DNA of 64,000 bases, from positions 797 to 64,796 of the forward strand of contig JACQLT010000002.1 of assembly GCA_016203945.1 (NCBI GenBank). Direction: 5' to 3'. Of the stretch, positions 1,995 through 18,698 are shown piece after piece. A model generated the notes under the pieces. It saw only the letters and a program-made list of their open reading frames with translations. It searched no databases and was not told where the DNA came from. Position numbers and translations under genes: made by a program. Numbering within the stretch: position 1 is the first letter of the stretch; every line of letters begins with the position of its first letter. The stretch comes from Parcubacteria group bacterium (lineage in GTDB: Bacteria > Patescibacteriota > Minisyncoccia > Minisyncoccales > UBA10102).

Positions 1995-3022
1995 TGGACC
2001 TGAACAGTATCAGAGAAGAATATCGAGGAGTCCTCAAGGAACTCAGCAACCCTGACATCGTTTCAGATCGCCAGAAGTTTCAGGAGCTTGCCCGCAGCAA
2101 GGCCCGCTTGGAAAAGATCATCAGGAAGACGGACGAGATTGAGACCGTCGCACAACGCATTGAGGAAAACCAGCAGATCTTGGCCTCCCGCGAAGATGGA
2201 GATCTCTCGGCGCTGGCTGAGCAAGAGCTCCAGGGCCTTGTGAAGCAACATACGGAACTCCAGAAAGAACTGGAGGATTTGTCGCATGAGAAAGAAGAGC
2301 GCGGAGCCCTGATCATGGAGATACGCCCCGGTACCGGAGGCGAAGAAGCCGCATTGTTCGCGGCCAGCCTGCTCCGCATGTACACCAGGTTCTCAGAACG
2401 CAGGCACTGGAAATACAAGCAGCTGAGCATAAACGAAACGGAGCTCGGCGGCGTAAAAGAAGCGGCCCTGGAAATTGAAGGGGAAGGGGCCTTTGCTGTG
2501 CTCCGTCACGAAGCAGGGGTGCACCGCGTCCAGAGGATTCCCGCAACCGAAAAGGCAGGAAGGGTGCATACCTCGACAGCTTCGGTCGCAATACTGCCAA
2601 AACCGGAAGCAGGAGAACTGATCCTTCGTCCGGACGACTTAGAGGTTGATTTTTACCGGTCTTCGGGAGCCGGAGGCCAGAACGTGAACAAGCGCGAAAC
2701 CGCAGTGCGTCTCACGCACAAGCCAACGGGCATCGTGGTCACCTCGCAAACCGCCCGCACGCAACCGGAAAACAAGGAATACGCGCTTTCTCTACTGGCC
2801 GCCCGCGTCCTGAAAAAACAACAAGAAGAAAAAACCGGCAATATCGCCGAAGCGAGGCGAGGGCAAATCGGCAAGGCAATGAGGGCTGAAAAAATCAGAA
2901 CGTACAACTTTCCTCAGGATCGGCTCACTGACCACAGAATCAAAAAAACCTGGCACAATCTGGAACAGATCATGGCAGGCGACCTCGACCCAATCTTCGA
3001 ATCCTTTTCTTCTTCATCATAA
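1994..3022 (+). CDS. prfA: peptide chain release factor 1
   Basis: RF1 tripeptide PAT ([14 protein letters not shown]) and GGQ ([15 protein letters not shown]). ATG 1994 overlaps the rpmE TAA (TAATG). The upstream extension in the ORF track is rejected. Confidence 0.95.
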
Positions 3023-12483: not shown

Positions 12484-13899
12484 TTATATACTGGTATTTG
12501 ATCTGGAACTGTTGTAATCGTCGGCTGCTTGTGCATGCACCTCAATAATTATGGCGCGGAGGTTTTCTATGTCTGTTTTAAGCTCCGCGGCTATGGCGCG
12601 GGCTTCTTCCGCAACTCCTCCTACATTTTCGCCCAAAAGCAGCGATTCATATTTCGCCTTAAGCTCTTCCATCTTTGCCTCGTTTTCAACGCTCATACTT
12701 TTAGCTTTCTCAATAAGCGGGGCTGTTGATGATGTATCAATCCCTTGCGCTTCAAGTTTTAGAATCCGCAATTCCAGCCGGCCTAAAATATGGTCAAACC
12801 GGGCCATTGCCGAGCGGTAACGATTGAGCATGCGCAATCCTTTGCCGTGGGCAACGGCAATGCGCGCCGTTTTTCCGTGATCCACATGGCCTATTGTTGT
12901 TTCAACATTTTCTCGGAAATTATCGCGAAGCGCTTTTGCGGCTTCATGAACTGCGGGCTCACGAACCTTCTGTACGGCCGGCAGTAATAAAGCGGATCGT
13001 TGTAGATCTGATAGCGCCGAATCGGTCTGATGTAAGAGCGCCCGCTCCAGTCCCAACACATCCGCAATCAAACCCTTGTCTTCCACAGCCGCAAGCAACT
13101 CAATGTCGCCCTCAACAATCTTTTTTACGGTCAGAAGCGACTGGATTGCCTCTTCTTTTCTGCCGTCTTTGATCGCCTTCTCTGCCTCAGTCGTCACGTC
13201 CGCCCTGCTCTTTGCATGGTCCCCAACCGTTATGCATACCTTTGTATCACAACCCTTGAGCCGTTCCTGTATCTTCCCAATGGTATTCTGCATCAACTCA
13301 ATCTTTTTACCAGGGATTCCTTGAATTTTAATATATGATTTAGATTGCGGGGTATCTCCTGCGCTAGGAGCAGAAACTTTACGTTGGTTTCCATCTGTAT
13401 CCTCAATCTGTGTTTCTCCTGCAGGTGCCGATTTAGTGTTGGATTTGGACTCGTTGTAGTTCTTTCCCGCGGCTGGAGCAGGAACCGCCCCTGAAGTAAA
13501 TTCTTTTTCGGGAGAATCAGCTCTGCGATCGGGAAAGCCGTGTGCGTTACCGTCTCCTGCAGATTCTTTTGTAGCAGAATCAGCTCCGGCGCCAAGCTCA
13601 TCAAGTTTTGTTAAAACTTCCTGGATGCCAGGGTCGCTTACACCAAATCTAACTAGCATCGCCCTGAGGTCAACCGTGCTAATGCCTCGAGCAAGAGCAT
13701 CCGTCACCTCATTGATCTCCGCGCCGCCAATGCCGTAGCGCAAAAGAATATCTCCAACGTGTTTGTTTGCTATTGGTATGTTTACTACTGATATTGAGGT
13801 ATTTGACCTCGAGCTGTTGTAATCGTCGGCAGAAAATACAGCCGCAGCAGAGAGTACCGCTGCCCCCACGATGAATATTGTGATTATTTTTATACGCAT
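12484..13899 (-). CDS. hypothetical secreted protein with identical 13-aa terminal peptides
   Basis: Signal peptide MRIKIITIFIVGAAVLSAAAVFS. ADDYNSSRSNTSI follows it directly and recurs as the last 13 residues. Helical C-terminal half; no family recognised. Confidence 0.6.
   Translation of the reverse strand: MRIKIITIFIVGAAVLSAAAVFSADDYNSSRSNTSISVVNIPIANKHVGDILLRYGIGGAEINEVTDALARGISTVDLRAMLVRFGVSDPGIQEVLTKLDELGAGADSATKESAGDGNAHGFPDRRADSPEKEFTSGAVPAPAAGKNYNESKSNTKSAPAGETQIEDTDGNQRKVSAPSAGDTPQSKSYIKIQGIPGKKIELMQNTIGKIQERLKGCDTKVCITVGDHAKSRADVTTEAEKAIKDGRKEEAIQSLLTVKKIVEGDIELLAAVEDKGLIADVLGLERALLHQTDSALSDLQRSALLLPAVQKVREPAVHEAAKALRDNFRENVETTIGHVDHGKTARIAVAHGKGLRMLNRYRSAMARFDHILGRLELRILKLEAQGIDTSSTAPLIEKAKSMSVENEAKMEELKAKYESLLLGENVGGVAEEARAIAAELKTDIENLRAIIIEVHAQAADDYNSSRSNTSI
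12487..12525 (-). repeat. C-terminal ADDYNSSRSNTSI coding copy
   Basis: GCC GAC GAT TAC AAC AGT TCC AGA TCA AAT ACC AGT ATA. Confidence 0.85.
13792..13830 (-). repeat. N-terminal (post-signal) ADDYNSSRSNTSI coding copy
   Basis: GCC GAC GAT TAC AAC AGC TCG AGG TCA AAT ACC TCA ATA. Same peptide; differs from 12487-12525 only at synonymous sites. Confidence 0.85.
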
Positions 13900-13996: not shown

Positions 13997-14029
13997 GTCT
14001 CGGTCACCTGACTTAGCATATGACGGCTG
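13997..14029. repeat. 33-bp direct repeat, distal copy
   Basis: gtctcggtcacctgacttagcatatgacggctg, identical to 15049-15081. Confidence 0.9.
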
Positions 14030-14121
14030 TGTACCTTGGCCTAGAACCAAGGGGTTAAGAGGGATTTCATGGATTTCTAGGGATGTCTCATTGACCCGTC
14101 TCGGTCACACGATCAAATGGA

Positions 14122-14283
14122 CTAAGTAAATAAAAGTTTGAATATCTCAAATATGATCCAGGTAGTAATAAAGCCAATGCCGTACAAAAGCAAAAAACTT
14201 AGAAACGAACGTTTTTTATTGATACCAAAACTAACAACAAGTACTTCTACAGCAGCAAGTATTGCAATAAAATCGAAATTCAT
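14122..14283 (-). CDS. hypothetical 53-aa two-TM micro-protein
   Basis: Not in the ORF track (<60 aa). MNFDFIAILAAVEVLVVSFGINKKRSFLSFLLLYGIGFITTWIIFEIFKLLFT. ATG lies 1 nt after the upstream TAA. Confidence 0.35.
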   Translation of the reverse strand: MNFDFIAILAAVEVLVVSFGINKKRSFLSFLLLYGIGFITTWIIFEIFKLLFT

Positions 14284-14284
14284 A

Positions 14285-14458
14285 TTATTTTTCTAATCCT
14301 TTTTCGTGTAAACAATTCTCATGGAGAACTCCAGCGAATTCTTTTTTAGCACACTCTTTTCTGATTTGCGTCGGCCGCCACTCATACCAATAAAAAACAA
14401 ACTCTAAAACTATAAGCAGTATTAAGACGATGTATTTATATTGTTTTATTTTTCCCAC
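14285..14458 (-). CDS. possible 57-aa single-TM micro-protein (GTG start)
   Basis: VGKIKQYKYIVLILLIVLEFVFYWYEWRPTQIRKECAKKEFAGVLHENCLHEKGLEK. The only possible start is a GTG, with no SD. Confidence 0.2.
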   Translation of the reverse strand: MGKIKQYKYIVLILLIVLEFVFYWYEWRPTQIRKECAKKEFAGVLHENCLHEKGLEK

Positions 14459-14530
14459 ATACTTAGTTGAAGTCTATTTTAATGCAAGAGTATCTTAATC
14501 TATTCGTCTCGGTCGAGATTCTATCCAAAA

Positions 14531-15043
14531 TTATGGTGTTAATCGAAGCACTTTCTCAATAATGGGAAAAGCGAGAAAAAGAACCCATAATGATAAAATA
14601 ATATTTCCAGCCAGATATGCCGGTCCAGCTAAATGCGAGTTGAAATATGGGATAAAAGGAATAGCAATTAGCGCCAAAGCCACATTAGATAAGCAAACAA
14701 CTGCGAACGTCTTTAAATCAATTGTAAGTTCTCGCATGGAAGCTTCTATTTTTGTTATATCTTCGGCAATAACCCCTATAGGGACACTCATCCTATCTCG
14801 CTTCGTCTGATCTCGTTGCAATTTGAATACGGCAAGCATCCCCAAGAAAGCTACCAACGCAACAAATCCTTGGACTATGGTGCTGAACGAATAGTAGTAA
14901 ACATACGAACCTCCTTGTCCAAAGAGAGCCGTAAGGTCAAAAAGACCCTTCAGCAAATACGTAACTAGCCCACTCAAAAGAAACGGCATTATAATATGAC
15001 CGACTCTATATTTCCGCATAATTTTCTTTAATTTATTAGTCAT
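14531..15043 (-). CDS. hypothetical 4-TM membrane protein
   Basis: 170-aa ORF in the AT-rich islet with four hydrophobic helices. No family recognised. Confidence 0.55.
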   Translation of the reverse strand: MTNKLKKIMRKYRVGHIIMPFLLSGLVTYLLKGLFDLTALFGQGGSYVYYYSFSTIVQGFVALVAFLGMLAVFKLQRDQTKRDRMSVPIGVIAEDITKIEASMRELTIDLKTFAVVCLSNVALALIAIPFIPYFNSHLAGPAYLAGNIILSLWVLFLAFPIIEKVLRLTP

Positions 15044-15048
15044 AACGC

Positions 15049-15081
15049 GTCTCGGTCACCTGACTTAGCATATGACGGCTG
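15049..15081. repeat. 33-bp direct repeat, tRNA-proximal copy
   Basis: Identical to 13997-14029. Its last 3 nt are the 3' end of tRNA-Gln. Confidence 0.9.
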
Positions 15082-15149
15082 CGGGACCAGGATTCGAACC
15101 TAGATTAACGGATTCAGAGTCCGCTGTCCTACCATTAGACGATCCCGCA
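15079..15149 (-). tRNA. tRNA-Gln (anticodon CUG)
   Basis: rc: TGCGGGA-TC-GTCT..GGAC-A-GCGGA-CTCTGAA-TCCGT-TAAT-CTAGG-TTCGAAT-CCTGG-TCCCGCA-G. The U1-A72 pair is typical of bacterial tRNA-Gln. Confidence 0.88.
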
Positions 15150-15389
15150 ATGTTTCATTTTCGCTTTTAATGCGCGCTTCCCTTTTGCTGTTTTATAAAA
15201 TCGCTCGATTCTAAATGCCTCATATTTATCTTCGTATTGTTCAGAATAGATTAATTTTATTGGCAACCTATTCTTTGTAGAACGAACTCTTCCTGACTGA
15301 TGAATTGCGATTCGCTTGTTTAAATCTTCGGTGCATCCGATGTACAGATTACCATCTCTCTCGCTTCTCAAAATATACACCGTATGCAT
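15135..15389 (-). CDS. GIY-YIG (URI-domain) nuclease, 84 aa
   Basis: VYILRSERDGNLYIGCTEDLNKRIAIH..., with downstream R and E residues of the GIY-YIG fold. The last five codons plus stop (TGC GGG ATC GTC TAA) are nt 1-15 of tRNA-Gln. Confidence 0.85.
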   Translation of the reverse strand: MHTVYILRSERDGNLYIGCTEDLNKRIAIHQSGRVRSTKNRLPIKLIYSEQYEDKYEAFRIERFYKTAKGKRALKAKMKHCGIV

Positions 15390-15396
15390 ACTATAT

Positions 15397-15461
15397 GTCC
15401 TACCATTAGCCTCGCCCGTAGGCCAGTAGCCTTCGGGCTACGGCCGAGGGACGATCCCGCA
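15397..15461 (-). pseudogene. orphan tRNA-Gln 5' fragment interrupted by a 41-nt GC-rich hairpin
   Basis: TGCGGGATCGT + CCCTCGGCCGTAGCCCGAAGGCTACTGGCCTACGGGCGAGG + CTAATGGTAGGAC. No anticodon or T arm follows. Confidence 0.6.
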
Positions 15462-15482
15462 AAGTAGTGGACTGCGGTGCGA

Positions 15483-16394
15483 TTATACCTCCAAATACCG
15501 CCTCATTGCAATGGCGGCAGACAAGACGCCAAGGCCAATGCCGAGCACAAGCTGGAGGAGGAGGATGAGGAAGATGTTGGATAGGAAATAGCCTGCCAGG
15601 TTGAATCCCGGAAGCAGACGTTCCACGAATCCGCTGATGAGGAATACCGGAACCATGAACAGCAGGGTGGTGACAATGCTTGCGATGACGCCTATCATGG
15701 CTCCCTGCATGAAGAAGGGCCCCCGGATGAAGGCGTTTGAAGCTCCCACCAGGCGCATCACCTCAATCTCTTTTCTCGCGTGGTATATGGCAAGGCGGGT
15801 AGTATTGAATGCCACGAGCACTACCGCAATGCCGAACAGGAGCACCACGAGGAATCCGATCGTCTGAATGCCCGTTGTCAGGGCCCCTATCTTTTCAATC
15901 GTGGGCCGGCGGTCCTGATAGTCAATCTTCTCAATGATGGAAGCGGAATCCCCTCTCTGCAGCGCGTCCACCACCTTCGCGTAGTCCCCCTGCTCCCAGG
16001 TGCGGATGTTCAAAGAAGCAAGCAAAGGGTTCCTTCCCACTTCCTGGAGAGAAGACAGAATGACGGGATCGTTCTGATTCGCTTCGGTGAACTTCTTGAG
16101 CGCGTCCTCCTGGGAGACGTACTTTACGTCCCTAATCTCTGGAAGCTGGAGGAGCTGGGTCTGCACATCCAGAATGTTTTGCTCTGGAGTTTCCTTGAGA
16201 AAGTACGCGCTCACGTCAACGCGGCTCTCTAAAGCAAGCACCAGGAATGACGTGGCTCCCCGCACCAGGAACAGCGTTGTCGCCCCGGAAAGCGTGAGCA
16301 CCATAATGAACAGCAGGGCCATGGAAGAGCCCTTGTCCCTCAAAAAGCTCTGGTATCCGTACCTGGCGATGCGTTTTAATGAGACGAAAAACAT
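15483..16394 (-). CDS. ftsX: cell division permease FtsX
   Basis: TM1, extracellular domain, then three C-terminal TM helices. ATG 16394 (MFFVSLKRIARYGYQ) lies 4 nt after the ftsE stop. Confidence 0.85.
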   Translation of the reverse strand: MFFVSLKRIARYGYQSFLRDKGSSMALLFIMVLTLSGATTLFLVRGATSFLVLALESRVDVSAYFLKETPEQNILDVQTQLLQLPEIRDVKYVSQEDALKKFTEANQNDPVILSSLQEVGRNPLLASLNIRTWEQGDYAKVVDALQRGDSASIIEKIDYQDRRPTIEKIGALTTGIQTIGFLVVLLFGIAVVLVAFNTTRLAIYHARKEIEVMRLVGASNAFIRGPFFMQGAMIGVIASIVTTLLFMVPVFLISGFVERLLPGFNLAGYFLSNIFLILLLQLVLGIGLGVLSAAIAMRRYLEV

Positions 16395-18524: not shown

Positions 18525-18549
18525 GCCGATTCCATTTTTATCCCATTAG

Positions 18550-18621
18550 AGCCGATGGTCGGATTCGAACCGACGACCTACTCTTTACGAAAGAGTTGCT
18601 CTACCACTGAGCTACATCGGC
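18550..18621 (-). tRNA. tRNA-Thr (anticodon CGU)
   Basis: GCCGATG-TA-GCTC-AGTGGTA-GAGC-A-ACTCT-TTCGTAA-AGAGT-AGGTC-GTCGG-TTCGAAT-CCGAC-CATCGGC-T. Confidence 0.9.
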
Positions 18622-18627
18622 ATCATG

Positions 18628-18698
18628 AGCGAGAGACGGGAATCGAACCCGCGTATCTTGCTTGGGAAGCAAGCGTACTGCCATTGTACTACTCTCGC
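18628..18698 (-). tRNA. tRNA-Gly (anticodon CCC)
   Basis: GCGAGAG-TA-GTAC-AATGGCA-GTAC-G-CTTGC-TTCCCAA-GCAAG-ATAC-GCGGG-TTCGATT-CCCGT-CTCTCGC-T. Confidence 0.9.

Follow-up and report, generated by a model that had tools for sequence, protein, structure and literature searches.

What is a nuclease gene doing inside the 5' end of a tRNA gene, and how does the tRNA gene stay whole? The question is raised by a locus in a 64,000-nt stretch of DNA from a Parcubacteria group bacterium (assembly GCA_016203945.1, contig JACQLT010000002.1, forward-strand positions 797 to 64,796), the whole of which is called the window here. On its minus strand, past the end of ftsX, the order of elements is the tRNA promoter region, an orphan copy of nt 1-25 of tRNA-Gln, a short spacer, a minimal GIY-YIG nuclease open reading frame (ORF) of 84 aa and, without any gap, the intact tRNA-Gln(CTG) gene (Table 1). 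The sequence comparisons described below make it probable, though well short of certain, that this is a selfish, free-standing, homing-endonuclease-like cassette residing inside the tRNA-Gln 5' region.

The last five codons and the stop of the ORF (TGC GGG ATC GTC TAA) are nt 1-15 of the tRNA-Gln. Its ATG, at position 15389, lies about 6-7 nt past the end of the orphan (7 nt when counted from C24), and the GGTAGGA within orphan nt 12-25 is a possible Shine-Dalgarno sequence for it. Every sequence detail in a preliminary description of the locus (the ORF ending inside the intact tRNA-Gln, the orphan 5' copy, its splitting by a 41-nt hairpin, and the lone ORF between the copies) was found to be correct. 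The 13-mer of the second orphan half occurs twice in the window, with 0.03 occurrences expected, and none of 100 shuffled sequences reached two; the 11-mer of the first half is not significant alone. The ORF has a GC content of about 40%, as compared with about 55% in ftsE, ftsX and prfB, which suggests a foreign composition and was counted in favour of a selfish cassette. Neither a second GIY-YIG ORF within the 64-kb window nor any structured RNA besides the tRNA in a permissive Rfam scan of positions 14500-16000 was found. A group I intron in the tRNA was rejected as an explanation, since Rfam finds only the tRNA and the ORF lies 5' of an uninterrupted tRNA.

The ftsX gene ends at position 15483 (minus strand), and 21 nt separate this end from orphan nt 1-11. 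The orphan thus begins where the tRNA 5' end lies in alleles lacking the cassette, in which the intact tRNA follows ftsX after 21 nt (locus L168) or 19 nt (L167). The hexamers TTGCAA and TATAAT that overlap the end of ftsX also precede the tRNA in L168, L163, L167 and L166, part of this conservation being due to the coding constraint on FtsX. Together, with their 18-nt spacing, they probably form the tRNA-Gln promoter, which would now drive the cassette too.

The arrangement is not peculiar to the window, and a comparison with about 60 other genomes of the candidate phyla radiation (CPR) shows it to be widespread. A protein-anchored scan, with one genome taken per species, gave 38 loci, all in metagenome-assembled genomes of Patescibacteria. 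A co-oriented tRNA lies directly downstream of the ORF in 37 of them (34 tRNA-Gln with anticodon CTG or TTG, and three tRNA-Glu(CTC)), the 38th being cut by a contig end. With metagenome loci added, 72 ORFs of this subfamily and 55 distinct cassettes were available. The stop codon lies between -43 and +12 nt from tRNA nt 1 in 61 of the 72 (32 Gln-CTG, 21 Gln-TTG, 4 Glu-CTC, 4 Glu-TTC); in seven more, further orphan or hairpin copies alone come between ORF and tRNA, and four run off the contig. Nt 1-11 of the local tRNA precede the ORF in 50 of the 55 cassettes, and in 29 this orphan matches the local tRNA exactly, down to lineage-specific acceptor-stem variants and the Glu-type D-loop. Orphan length ranges from about 7 nt to full-length tRNA copies (L036, L010, L147, L001). 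A full-length tRNA was found downstream in all evaluable cassettes, and the sequences indicate that the host tRNA is kept intact through duplication and not through splicing.

The junction with the tRNA is also recorded in protein databases. Tails encoded by tRNA (CGIV, CGVV, WGIV, SGIV or LSSNG) end 51 of 89 database homologues, many of which have exactly 84 aa; they are the translated 5' ends of tRNA-Gln, with the stop TAA in the D-loop, and of tRNA-Glu, with the stop TAG in the D-loop. The same layout recurs in sister GIY-YIG subfamilies at tRNA-Ser (L141, L108) and at tRNA-Thr(CGT) (L057, with an orphan of nt 1-24), and perhaps at tRNA-Met (L074).

The window itself contains a tRNA-Gly(CCC) and a tRNA-Thr(CGT) gene 5 nt apart (18549-18698). 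Between the same two tRNAs, L057 carries a 95-aa GIY-YIG gene and an orphan tRNA-Thr 5' fragment; since that site is filled and the window has only 5 nt there, the window represents its empty state. Gene callers were seen to run small ORFs of the family through the hairpin, giving N-terminal PSAVAR... peptides, or through an upstream tRNA, giving RFES or WFES from the T-loop (misextended proteins P0049, P0055, P0214; P0210, P0211, P0259, P0296). Because of these extensions many database entries have artefactual ends, and the translated T-loops reveal that some relatives sit directly 3' of tRNAs.

FtsX was then used as anchor, which gives an unbiased sample of the ftsX-tRNA-Gln locus. In L168, whose FtsX is 85% identical to that of the window, the ftsX stop is followed by 21 nt and an intact tRNA-Gln, i.e., the site is empty; the spacer opens with the same tcgcaccgc, tRNA nt 1-25 are identical and the 3' flank is the same. 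The site is also empty in L163 (FtsX 71%), which carries the variant D-arm allele TCTGCTAATGGTAGGCA, and probably in L167 (FtsX 91%), where an uninterrupted tRNA 5' end stands at the native position before the contig ends. In L161 and L162 it is empty on the 5' side of the tRNA. Owing to the duplicated tRNA 5' segment, the edges of the 312-nt block that the empty alleles lack can be moved by as much as 25 nt. The preliminary description had proposed that a GIY-YIG cassette of homing type, associated with the 5' part of the tRNA, is mobile and that the duplicated 5' segment preserves the tRNA, and had named empty sites in relatives and an association of GIY-YIG genes with tRNA 5' ends as checks. 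Both turned out as it had anticipated, the empty sites being those at this same locus and the association with tRNA 5' ends holding practically without exception.

In the closest relatives (L159, L160 and L166; FtsX 90-91%), the same 5' slot of tRNA-Gln is filled by an unrelated nuclease gene, an ORF of the LAGLIDADG_3 family (Pfam E 1e-10 and 1e-8). Upstream of it lies a degenerate orphan from the 5' part of the tRNA (GTCTAATGGTAG in L159, TTGCTGGGTCGCCTAAGTGGTA in L166), and the intact tRNA follows directly; the L166 ORF extends into the tRNA up to a TGA formed by the anticodon. No hairpin was found in the LAGLIDADG cassettes (two lineages). A second nuclease family in this slot is what would be expected of a niche for homing endonucleases. 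Decay is seen as well: footprints without an ORF, consisting of orphan, hairpin, short spacer and tRNA, occur in L094, L101 and L043, and the first ORF codons are still left in the decayed copies of L080/L157 and L078. Presence or absence at one locus, an intact host gene, and signs of invasion and decay (degenerate copies, replacement of one nuclease by another), all of them marks of a homing gene, are thus found together here.

The other end of the tRNA is also used. A second, YhbQ-like GIY-YIG gene (98 aa, PF01541 E 1e-19) occupies a clean 316-nt block directly past the tRNA-Gln 3' end in L161 (3656-3971), and this block is missing from the window and from L162, whose FtsX protein is the same as that of L161. 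Similar GIY-YIG genes on the 3' side were noticed in L001, L007, L053, L084, L123, L124 and L133.

In a neighbour-joining tree of the ORFs, those hosted by Gln-CTG and Gln-TTG are intermixed and the Glu-hosted ones form a nested clade. This mixing of hosts points to switches between tRNA genes that have the D-arm ATCGTCTAAYGGT(T)AGGAC in common.

The PF01541 match of the window protein covers residues 1-71 (55.2 bits against a cut-off of 22.6, E 8.9e-15). Over 86 homologues Y16, G18, R26, H30 and E62 do not vary, and the conservation of Y5 is at least 90%; if I-TevI and UvrC are taken as models, the conserved Tyr, Tyr, Arg, His and Glu would be the catalytic residues of the GIY-YIG fold. The proteins, of 78-84 aa, are stand-alone domains with no Asn among the invariant or near-invariant columns. 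A profile built from the 86 homologues matched, among structures in the Protein Data Bank (PDB), 1zg2 (UPF0213, BH0048; E 2.9e-11) and 1ywl (EF2693; E 4.6e-10) best, followed by eukaryotic SLX1 chains, which places the family in the minimal Slx1/UPF0213 (COG2827) branch described by Dunin-Horkawicz et al. (PMC1564403). Membership of the I-TevI/Seg branch, whose homing endonucleases join an N-terminal GIY-YIG domain by a linker to a C-terminal DNA-binding domain in about 200-270 aa, was not indicated: TIGR01453 (group I intron endonuclease) scored 18.8 bits against a cut-off of 56, and no DNA-binding module was detected. The protein is a bare catalytic domain of Slx1/UPF0213 type and not a homing enzyme of I-TevI type. 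By analogy with SLX1, a domain of 80 aa could possibly find its target by DNA structure. Pairwise ratios of nonsynonymous to synonymous substitutions (dN/dS) are 0.05-0.25, with dS near 1, and on account of these values the protein is considered to be kept functional. The wider family comprises 4,674 clusters at 50% identity (E <= 1e-10). As to a defence or phage origin, PADLOC gave only a match of 13.9 bits (E 0.005), PHROGs gave none, and no relative was met in a scan of viral contigs.

The second component of the locus is the hairpin. Its arms, CCTCGGCCGTAG and CTACGGGCGAGG, pair in a 12-bp stem with a conserved G.G mismatch, and the inner stem-loop is variable (GTAGCC-CGAA-GGCTAC in the window). 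The window copy has a C on either side and no further target motif. The predicted RNA fold of orphan plus hairpin deviates from expectation by z = -2.1 only. The hairpin is present in 53 of the 55 cassettes, a statistical link with this GIY-YIG family, being missing from the tRNA-Gln cassettes L035 and L147; the tRNA-Thr cassette L057 also has none. The exact 12-mer of the arm occurs in 31 of the 38 protein-found loci, solely beside the cassette, and within the 64-kb window the only hairpin copy is the cassette's own. In the window and in most other cassettes the hairpin stands in forward orientation at tRNA nt 11/12. Reversed copies lie near nt 6/7 and, in L034, at nt 21/22; L036 has it in the T-loop of extra tRNA copies, and the tRNA-Ser orphans have it at nt 9-10. 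Sister cassettes differ in hairpin site, hairpin orientation and orphan length. Tandem arrays of three to four identical 40-nt units lie inside the orphan in L045 (4245-4403) and L114 (1115-1233). Arrays of hairpins or orphans suggest ongoing local amplification, and together with the varied sites and orientations they indicate repeated insertions and not a single old event. The arms are invariant while synonymous sites of the ORF are saturated.

The hairpin is also found away from tRNA genes. A metagenome scan with the hairpin arms gave at least 120 loci; among the matches listed about half are cassettes, and the rest are solo copies in unrelated flanks that have only a C on each side in common. 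The dispersed family has lengths of 27, 39-41 or 54 nt, arms CCTCGGCCGTAG and CTAYGGGCGAGG and one flanking C. Solo copies mostly measure 27, 39 or 54 nt when the shared C is counted and, among the matches listed, 24 of 41 minimal copies lie in frame inside long ORFs (L046 at about 2992-3017; L052, L134, L154, L067, L072, L131). The hosts, housekeeping proteins of CPR metagenomes named by eye from their translations, include DnaG, FtsK, UvrA, a UvrD-like helicase, ArgS and a PurL-like protein. In DnaG the resulting 9-aa insertion, LGRSSMGEA, is missing from 119 of 120 homologues, including one that is 88% identical; this latter has a different hairpin-like insertion six residues away. The target-site duplication amounts to one C at most, and no transposase for the hairpin was identified. 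Judged from these sequences, the hairpin is a separate family of mobile mini-palindromes. It is present as the preliminary description had it, but the view that it reflects incidental decay of the orphan does not fit a discrete, conserved palindrome that occurs in 53 of 55 cassettes, in varied position and orientation, and is dispersed elsewhere. Because solo copies show no sequence targeting, the near-saturation of orphans of 25 nt implies either a mechanistic link with the nuclease or selection; possible advantages are that a redundant target copy is destroyed or that a direct repeat able to delete the cassette is broken.

Two simpler accounts of the hairpin were rejected. Targeting by sequence is at odds with solo copies that have nothing but the flanking C in common. 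A spliced mini-intron does not agree with the lengths, since the copies in ORFs (27, 39 and 54 nt) stay in frame and those in orphans are mostly of 40 or 41 nt, which are not multiples of three; moreover, the full-length tRNA copies that bear a hairpin are degenerate (L010, L036).

Among such copies, full-length extra tRNA-Gln genes whose D-stem and T-loop are broken by one to three palindromes, and whose acceptor stem or T-loop is degenerate, were observed in L036 (2733-2880), L010 (2848-2950), L147 (1565-1720) and L133, and they are missed by tRNA finders. In L043 (11640-11950) the whole unit of orphan, hairpin and spacer is tandemly duplicated.

These observations can be assembled into a scheme for the selfish cassette. 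Since there are two copies of the 5' segment with its entire D-arm, the downstream tRNA is complete and the insertion harmless. Transcription from the probable tRNA-Gln promoter near the ftsX end would take in the ORF as 5' leader of the tRNA precursor, because the ORF lies between that promoter and the tRNA and has no room for a promoter or terminator of its own. Cleavage by RNase P at tRNA nt 1 would part the mRNA from the tRNA; here the stop codon would be lost with it, and in the overlapping variants this loss might act as a brake on nuclease production. In spreading, the nuclease would nick or cut tRNA-Gln or tRNA-Glu genes having the common D-arm, and the break would be repaired by recombination from a cassette-bearing copy, the orphan serving as left and the tRNA as right arm. 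With the homology arms so placed, the flanks of a cognate tRNA gene would not matter for entry of the cassette. Recombination induced by the nuclease may have produced the duplication as a by-product, a tandem copy that later erodes, as the range of orphans from about 7 nt to full-length tRNA would allow and in parallel with SegB, discussed below. The hairpin would have landed or been retained repeatedly in the dispensable orphan, where it breaks both the extra target copy and the 25-nt direct repeat. As to the insertion point, the D-arm, the anticodon region and position -1 are indistinguishable here on the sequences at hand. Of the proposed insertion into the D-arm with a replacement 5' segment, the duplication of the 5' end has stood; given the same range of orphan lengths, the insertion point proper could equally be just 5' of the tRNA, with a local duplication driven by the nuclease.

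Several points weigh against a selfish cassette. The intact tRNA retains any target lying within it, which leaves self-immunity unaccounted for, and homology arms of 11-25 nt barely reach, or fall short of, the length that RecA-type recombination usually requires. To our knowledge, the Slx1/UPF0213 branch contains no homing enzyme, and the protein is the catalytic domain alone. The closest homologue of the window ORF is only 74% identical, so that no recent donor is apparent. Finally, GIY-YIG identity tracks FtsX identity (r = 0.79), and one clade looks, from its sequences, vertically co-inherited under strong purifying selection, as a gene beneficial to the host would be. Long-term upkeep, whether by recurrent homing among relatives, addiction or host benefit, is part of the picture.

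A bolder proposal, which appears rather unlikely, makes nuclease and palindrome one two-component mobile system. A Slx1-like nuclease of about 80 aa would recognise structure, namely tRNA D-arm or cloverleaf DNA and its cognate palindrome of 27-54 nt; it would be expressed from the tRNA leader, copy itself by 5' duplication, and mobilise palindromes in trans all over the genome, with in-frame insertions into essential genes among the results.

The correlation with FtsX raises a different possibility, that the small GIY-YIG protein serves the host, as a native or domesticated factor that works with tRNA-Gln and tRNA-Glu, for example in RNA processing, repair or upkeep of the locus, placed in the leader for co-expression, with orphan and hairpin as regulatory parts. 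The strict co-orientation with and abutment to the tRNA, the low dN/dS and the invariance of the hairpin arms next to saturated synonymous sites would all suit such a function, as would a fusion of GIY-YIG with TrmH, the tRNA Gm18 methylase, and the RNA role that has been suggested for prokaryotic Slx1-like proteins (PMC1564403). A host function is nonetheless unlikely: all close relatives sampled via FtsX (85-92%) lack the cassette and have empty sites or a LAGLIDADG gene instead, ORF-decay footprints exist, the GC content is atypical, and an unrelated nuclease family has adopted the same architecture. A fixed regulatory element would also not be expected to vary in site and orientation between sister cassettes, as the hairpin does.

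The hairpin itself has suggested a two-part system in which a structure-specific Slx1-like nuclease recognises hairpin DNA and mobilises copies in trans, in the manner of miniature inverted-repeat transposable elements, with the ORF-bearing tRNA copy as the autonomous element. Its near-constant presence in GIY-YIG cassettes, although solo copies prefer no target beyond a C, and its absence from LAGLIDADG cassettes agree with this, as do its occurrence at four positions in both orientations, in three to four tandem copies and sometimes on both sides of the ORF, the invariant arms beside saturated synonymous sites, and the presence of structure-specific SLX1 nucleases among the closest solved relatives. 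Still, GIY-YIG enzymes cut DNA and do not join it, the window has the nuclease and no solo hairpin within 64 kb, and hairpin-less cassettes exist at tRNA-Thr and tRNA-Gln, which together make this arrangement quite improbable.

A scar of a larger integrated element, with the repeat as an att-type duplication made by a site-specific recombinase and the GIY-YIG gene as leftover cargo, would draw on the standing of tRNA genes as classic integration sites where integration leaves a partial tRNA duplicate, and on the low-GC region on the other side of the tRNA. It is very improbable, and with it any recombinase-mediated tRNA island was rejected: in about 55 independent cassettes the repeats enclose the GIY-YIG ORF alone and no integrase is present, it is the 5' end and not the 3' end that is duplicated, and the junction of the ORF with tRNA nt 1 is fixed within a few nt. 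A chance repeat or an assembly artefact, which the 11-mer taken alone would allow, is next to inconceivable in view of the significant 13-mer and of the same architecture in more than 50 independent assemblies from different projects.

With the selfish cassette retained as the preferred explanation, its nearest known counterparts are the free-standing GIY-YIG homing endonucleases of T4-like phages, above all SegB in the tRNA gene cluster. This phage GIY-YIG enzyme cuts inside tRNA genes, is statistically tRNA-associated across phages and has been shown by experiment to drive recombination-dependent segmental duplication (PMC13096335; PMC2330249), which in phage T6 takes the form of amplification of tRNA-plus-segB segments (PMC13096335). 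In both cases an intron-less GIY-YIG gene lies beside tRNA genes and is present or absent between related genomes. However, SegB is a protein of the I-TevI/UvrC branch with more than 200 aa and DNA-binding modules, and its gene is carried by phages between whole tRNA genes. The present protein is a bare domain of 78-84 aa of Slx1/UPF0213 type, encoded on the chromosome in Patescibacteria and without viral match; its gene sits within the duplicated 5' segment of a single tRNA, directly against nt 1, and the stop codon is often in the D-loop. Genomic islands and prophages integrated at tRNA genes likewise have the tRNA gene as target, restore it by a duplicate segment and leave an orphan fragment at the other end. 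Their insertion depends on tyrosine or serine recombinases and copies the 3' end, and their length runs to kilobases; the present insert, of about 270-310 nt, lacks a recombinase and goes with a duplicated 5' end.

Group I introns with homing endonuclease genes in bacterial tRNA genes, including those of Patescibacteria (PMC13011429), are similar in being nuclease-associated mobile insertions for which neutrality is the key to persistence, but they lie in the anticodon loop and are neutral by self-splicing, while the present cassettes have no ribozyme and are neutral by duplication. The survey of Patescibacteria tRNA introns contains only such anticodon-loop introns, and no tRNA-Gln, GIY-YIG or D-arm sites (PMC13011429). 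With Slx1-like/UPF0213 proteins (COG2827, YhbQ-type; PMC1564403; PDB 1zg2, 1ywl) the nuclease has in common the fold and branch, the lone catalytic domain and the absence of an invariant C-terminal Asn. Those proteins are regarded as vertically inherited and repair-type, with function not known, and neither a tRNA-linked architecture nor mobility was described for them in the literature searched.

The hairpin alone can be likened to Rickettsia palindromic elements (RPEs), to repetitive extragenic palindromes (REPs) with their REP-associated tyrosine transposases (RAYTs) and to other miniature palindromic repeats. RPEs are short, dispersed, conserved palindromes of 100-150 nt found in frame inside housekeeping protein genes. 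The hairpin resembles them in being short, conserved, dispersed and in frame in housekeeping genes, and differs in its length of 27, 39-41 or 54 nt, in the lack of a duplication beyond one C, in its enrichment in orphan tRNA fragments by one nuclease family and in having no known transposase.

Homing nuclease genes are commonly considered to persist in essential genes by way of self-splicing introns or inteins, or by intergenic placement. The cassettes suggest a further way of staying harmless, in which the first 25 nt of a tRNA gene are duplicated, the nuclease gene sits in the leader and the tRNA promoter is probably borrowed. Two GIY-YIG lineages and one LAGLIDADG lineage use this architecture, at tRNA-Gln, tRNA-Glu, tRNA-Ser and tRNA-Thr across Patescibacteria. 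If the proposed two-component mobile system were real, target duplication would be a third general route to harmlessness beside introns and inteins, taken by at least three nuclease lineages. As a class, free-standing nuclease genes of homing type in the neighbourhood of tRNAs are already known; what appears to be new is survival by 5'-segment duplication inside a tRNA transcription unit, the minimal Slx1-like enzyme, the niche common to several nuclease lineages and the coupled mini-palindrome. Neither GIY-YIG genes at tRNA-Gln 5' ends in CPR nor the palindrome were found described in the full-text literature searched, the coverage of which was incomplete, so that an earlier description is possible. 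The results also provide a testable hypothesis for the role of bacterial Slx1/UPF0213-type proteins, explain annotation artefacts such as CGIV and LSSNG tails and PSAVAR-type N-terminal extensions, and reveal a tiny palindrome in frame in dnaG, ftsK, uvrA and argS of genomes otherwise known as streamlined.

Table 1. Features of the ftsX-tRNA-Gln locus in the window, and LAGLIDADG genes in the same slot of relatives.
Feature	Position	Strand	Basis
Promoter-like TTGCAA-18 nt-TATAAT, overlapping the ftsX stop	15482..15511	-	Consensus scan, 10/12
Orphan copy of tRNA-Gln nt 1-11 (TGCGGGATCGT)	15451..15461	-	Exact repeat
Palindromic mini-element of 41 nt, CCCTCGGCCGTAGCCCGAAGGCTACTGGCCTACGGGCGAGG, between orphan nt 11 and 12	15410..15450	-	Sequence and fold
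Orphan copy of tRNA-Gln nt 12-25 (CTAATGGTAGGACA; also written CTAATGGTAGGAC(A))	15396..15409	-	Exact repeat
Minimal GIY-YIG nuclease ORF, 84 aa	15135..15389	-	PF01541 E 9e-15
Intact, presumably functional tRNA-Gln(CTG)	15077..15149	-	ARAGORN; Rfam tRNA 63.9 bits, E 3e-13, full length
Block of 312 nt missing from empty alleles (from the orphan through hairpin and ORF to the tRNA)	15150..15461	-	Alignment with L168, L163, L167
3' flank of tRNA-Gln (GTCATATGCTAAGTCAGGTGACC...), unoccupied site for the second, YhbQ-like GIY-YIG cassette	15050..15076	-	Alignment with L161, L162
LAGLIDADG_3 genes at the tRNA-Gln 5' slot	L159 3411-4257; L160; L166 3118-4123		

The region 3' of tRNA-Gln (14000-15076) has a GC content of 30-42%, as compared with about 55% in neighbouring core genes, and codes only for small hypothetical membrane-like ORFs (170, 57 and 53 aa), that of 170 aa being without Pfam match; it may be a foreign islet at the tRNA. 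A motif of the type AGG(T/C)GAC(C)GAGAC recurs tens of nt past tRNA-Gln (window at about 15040-15065; L159, L163, L168, L001) and may belong to the ribosome-binding region of the next gene. Further along, a 471-aa ORF on the minus strand (12484-13899) contains the 12-residue peptide DDYNSSRSNTSI both near its N-terminus and at its extreme C-terminus.

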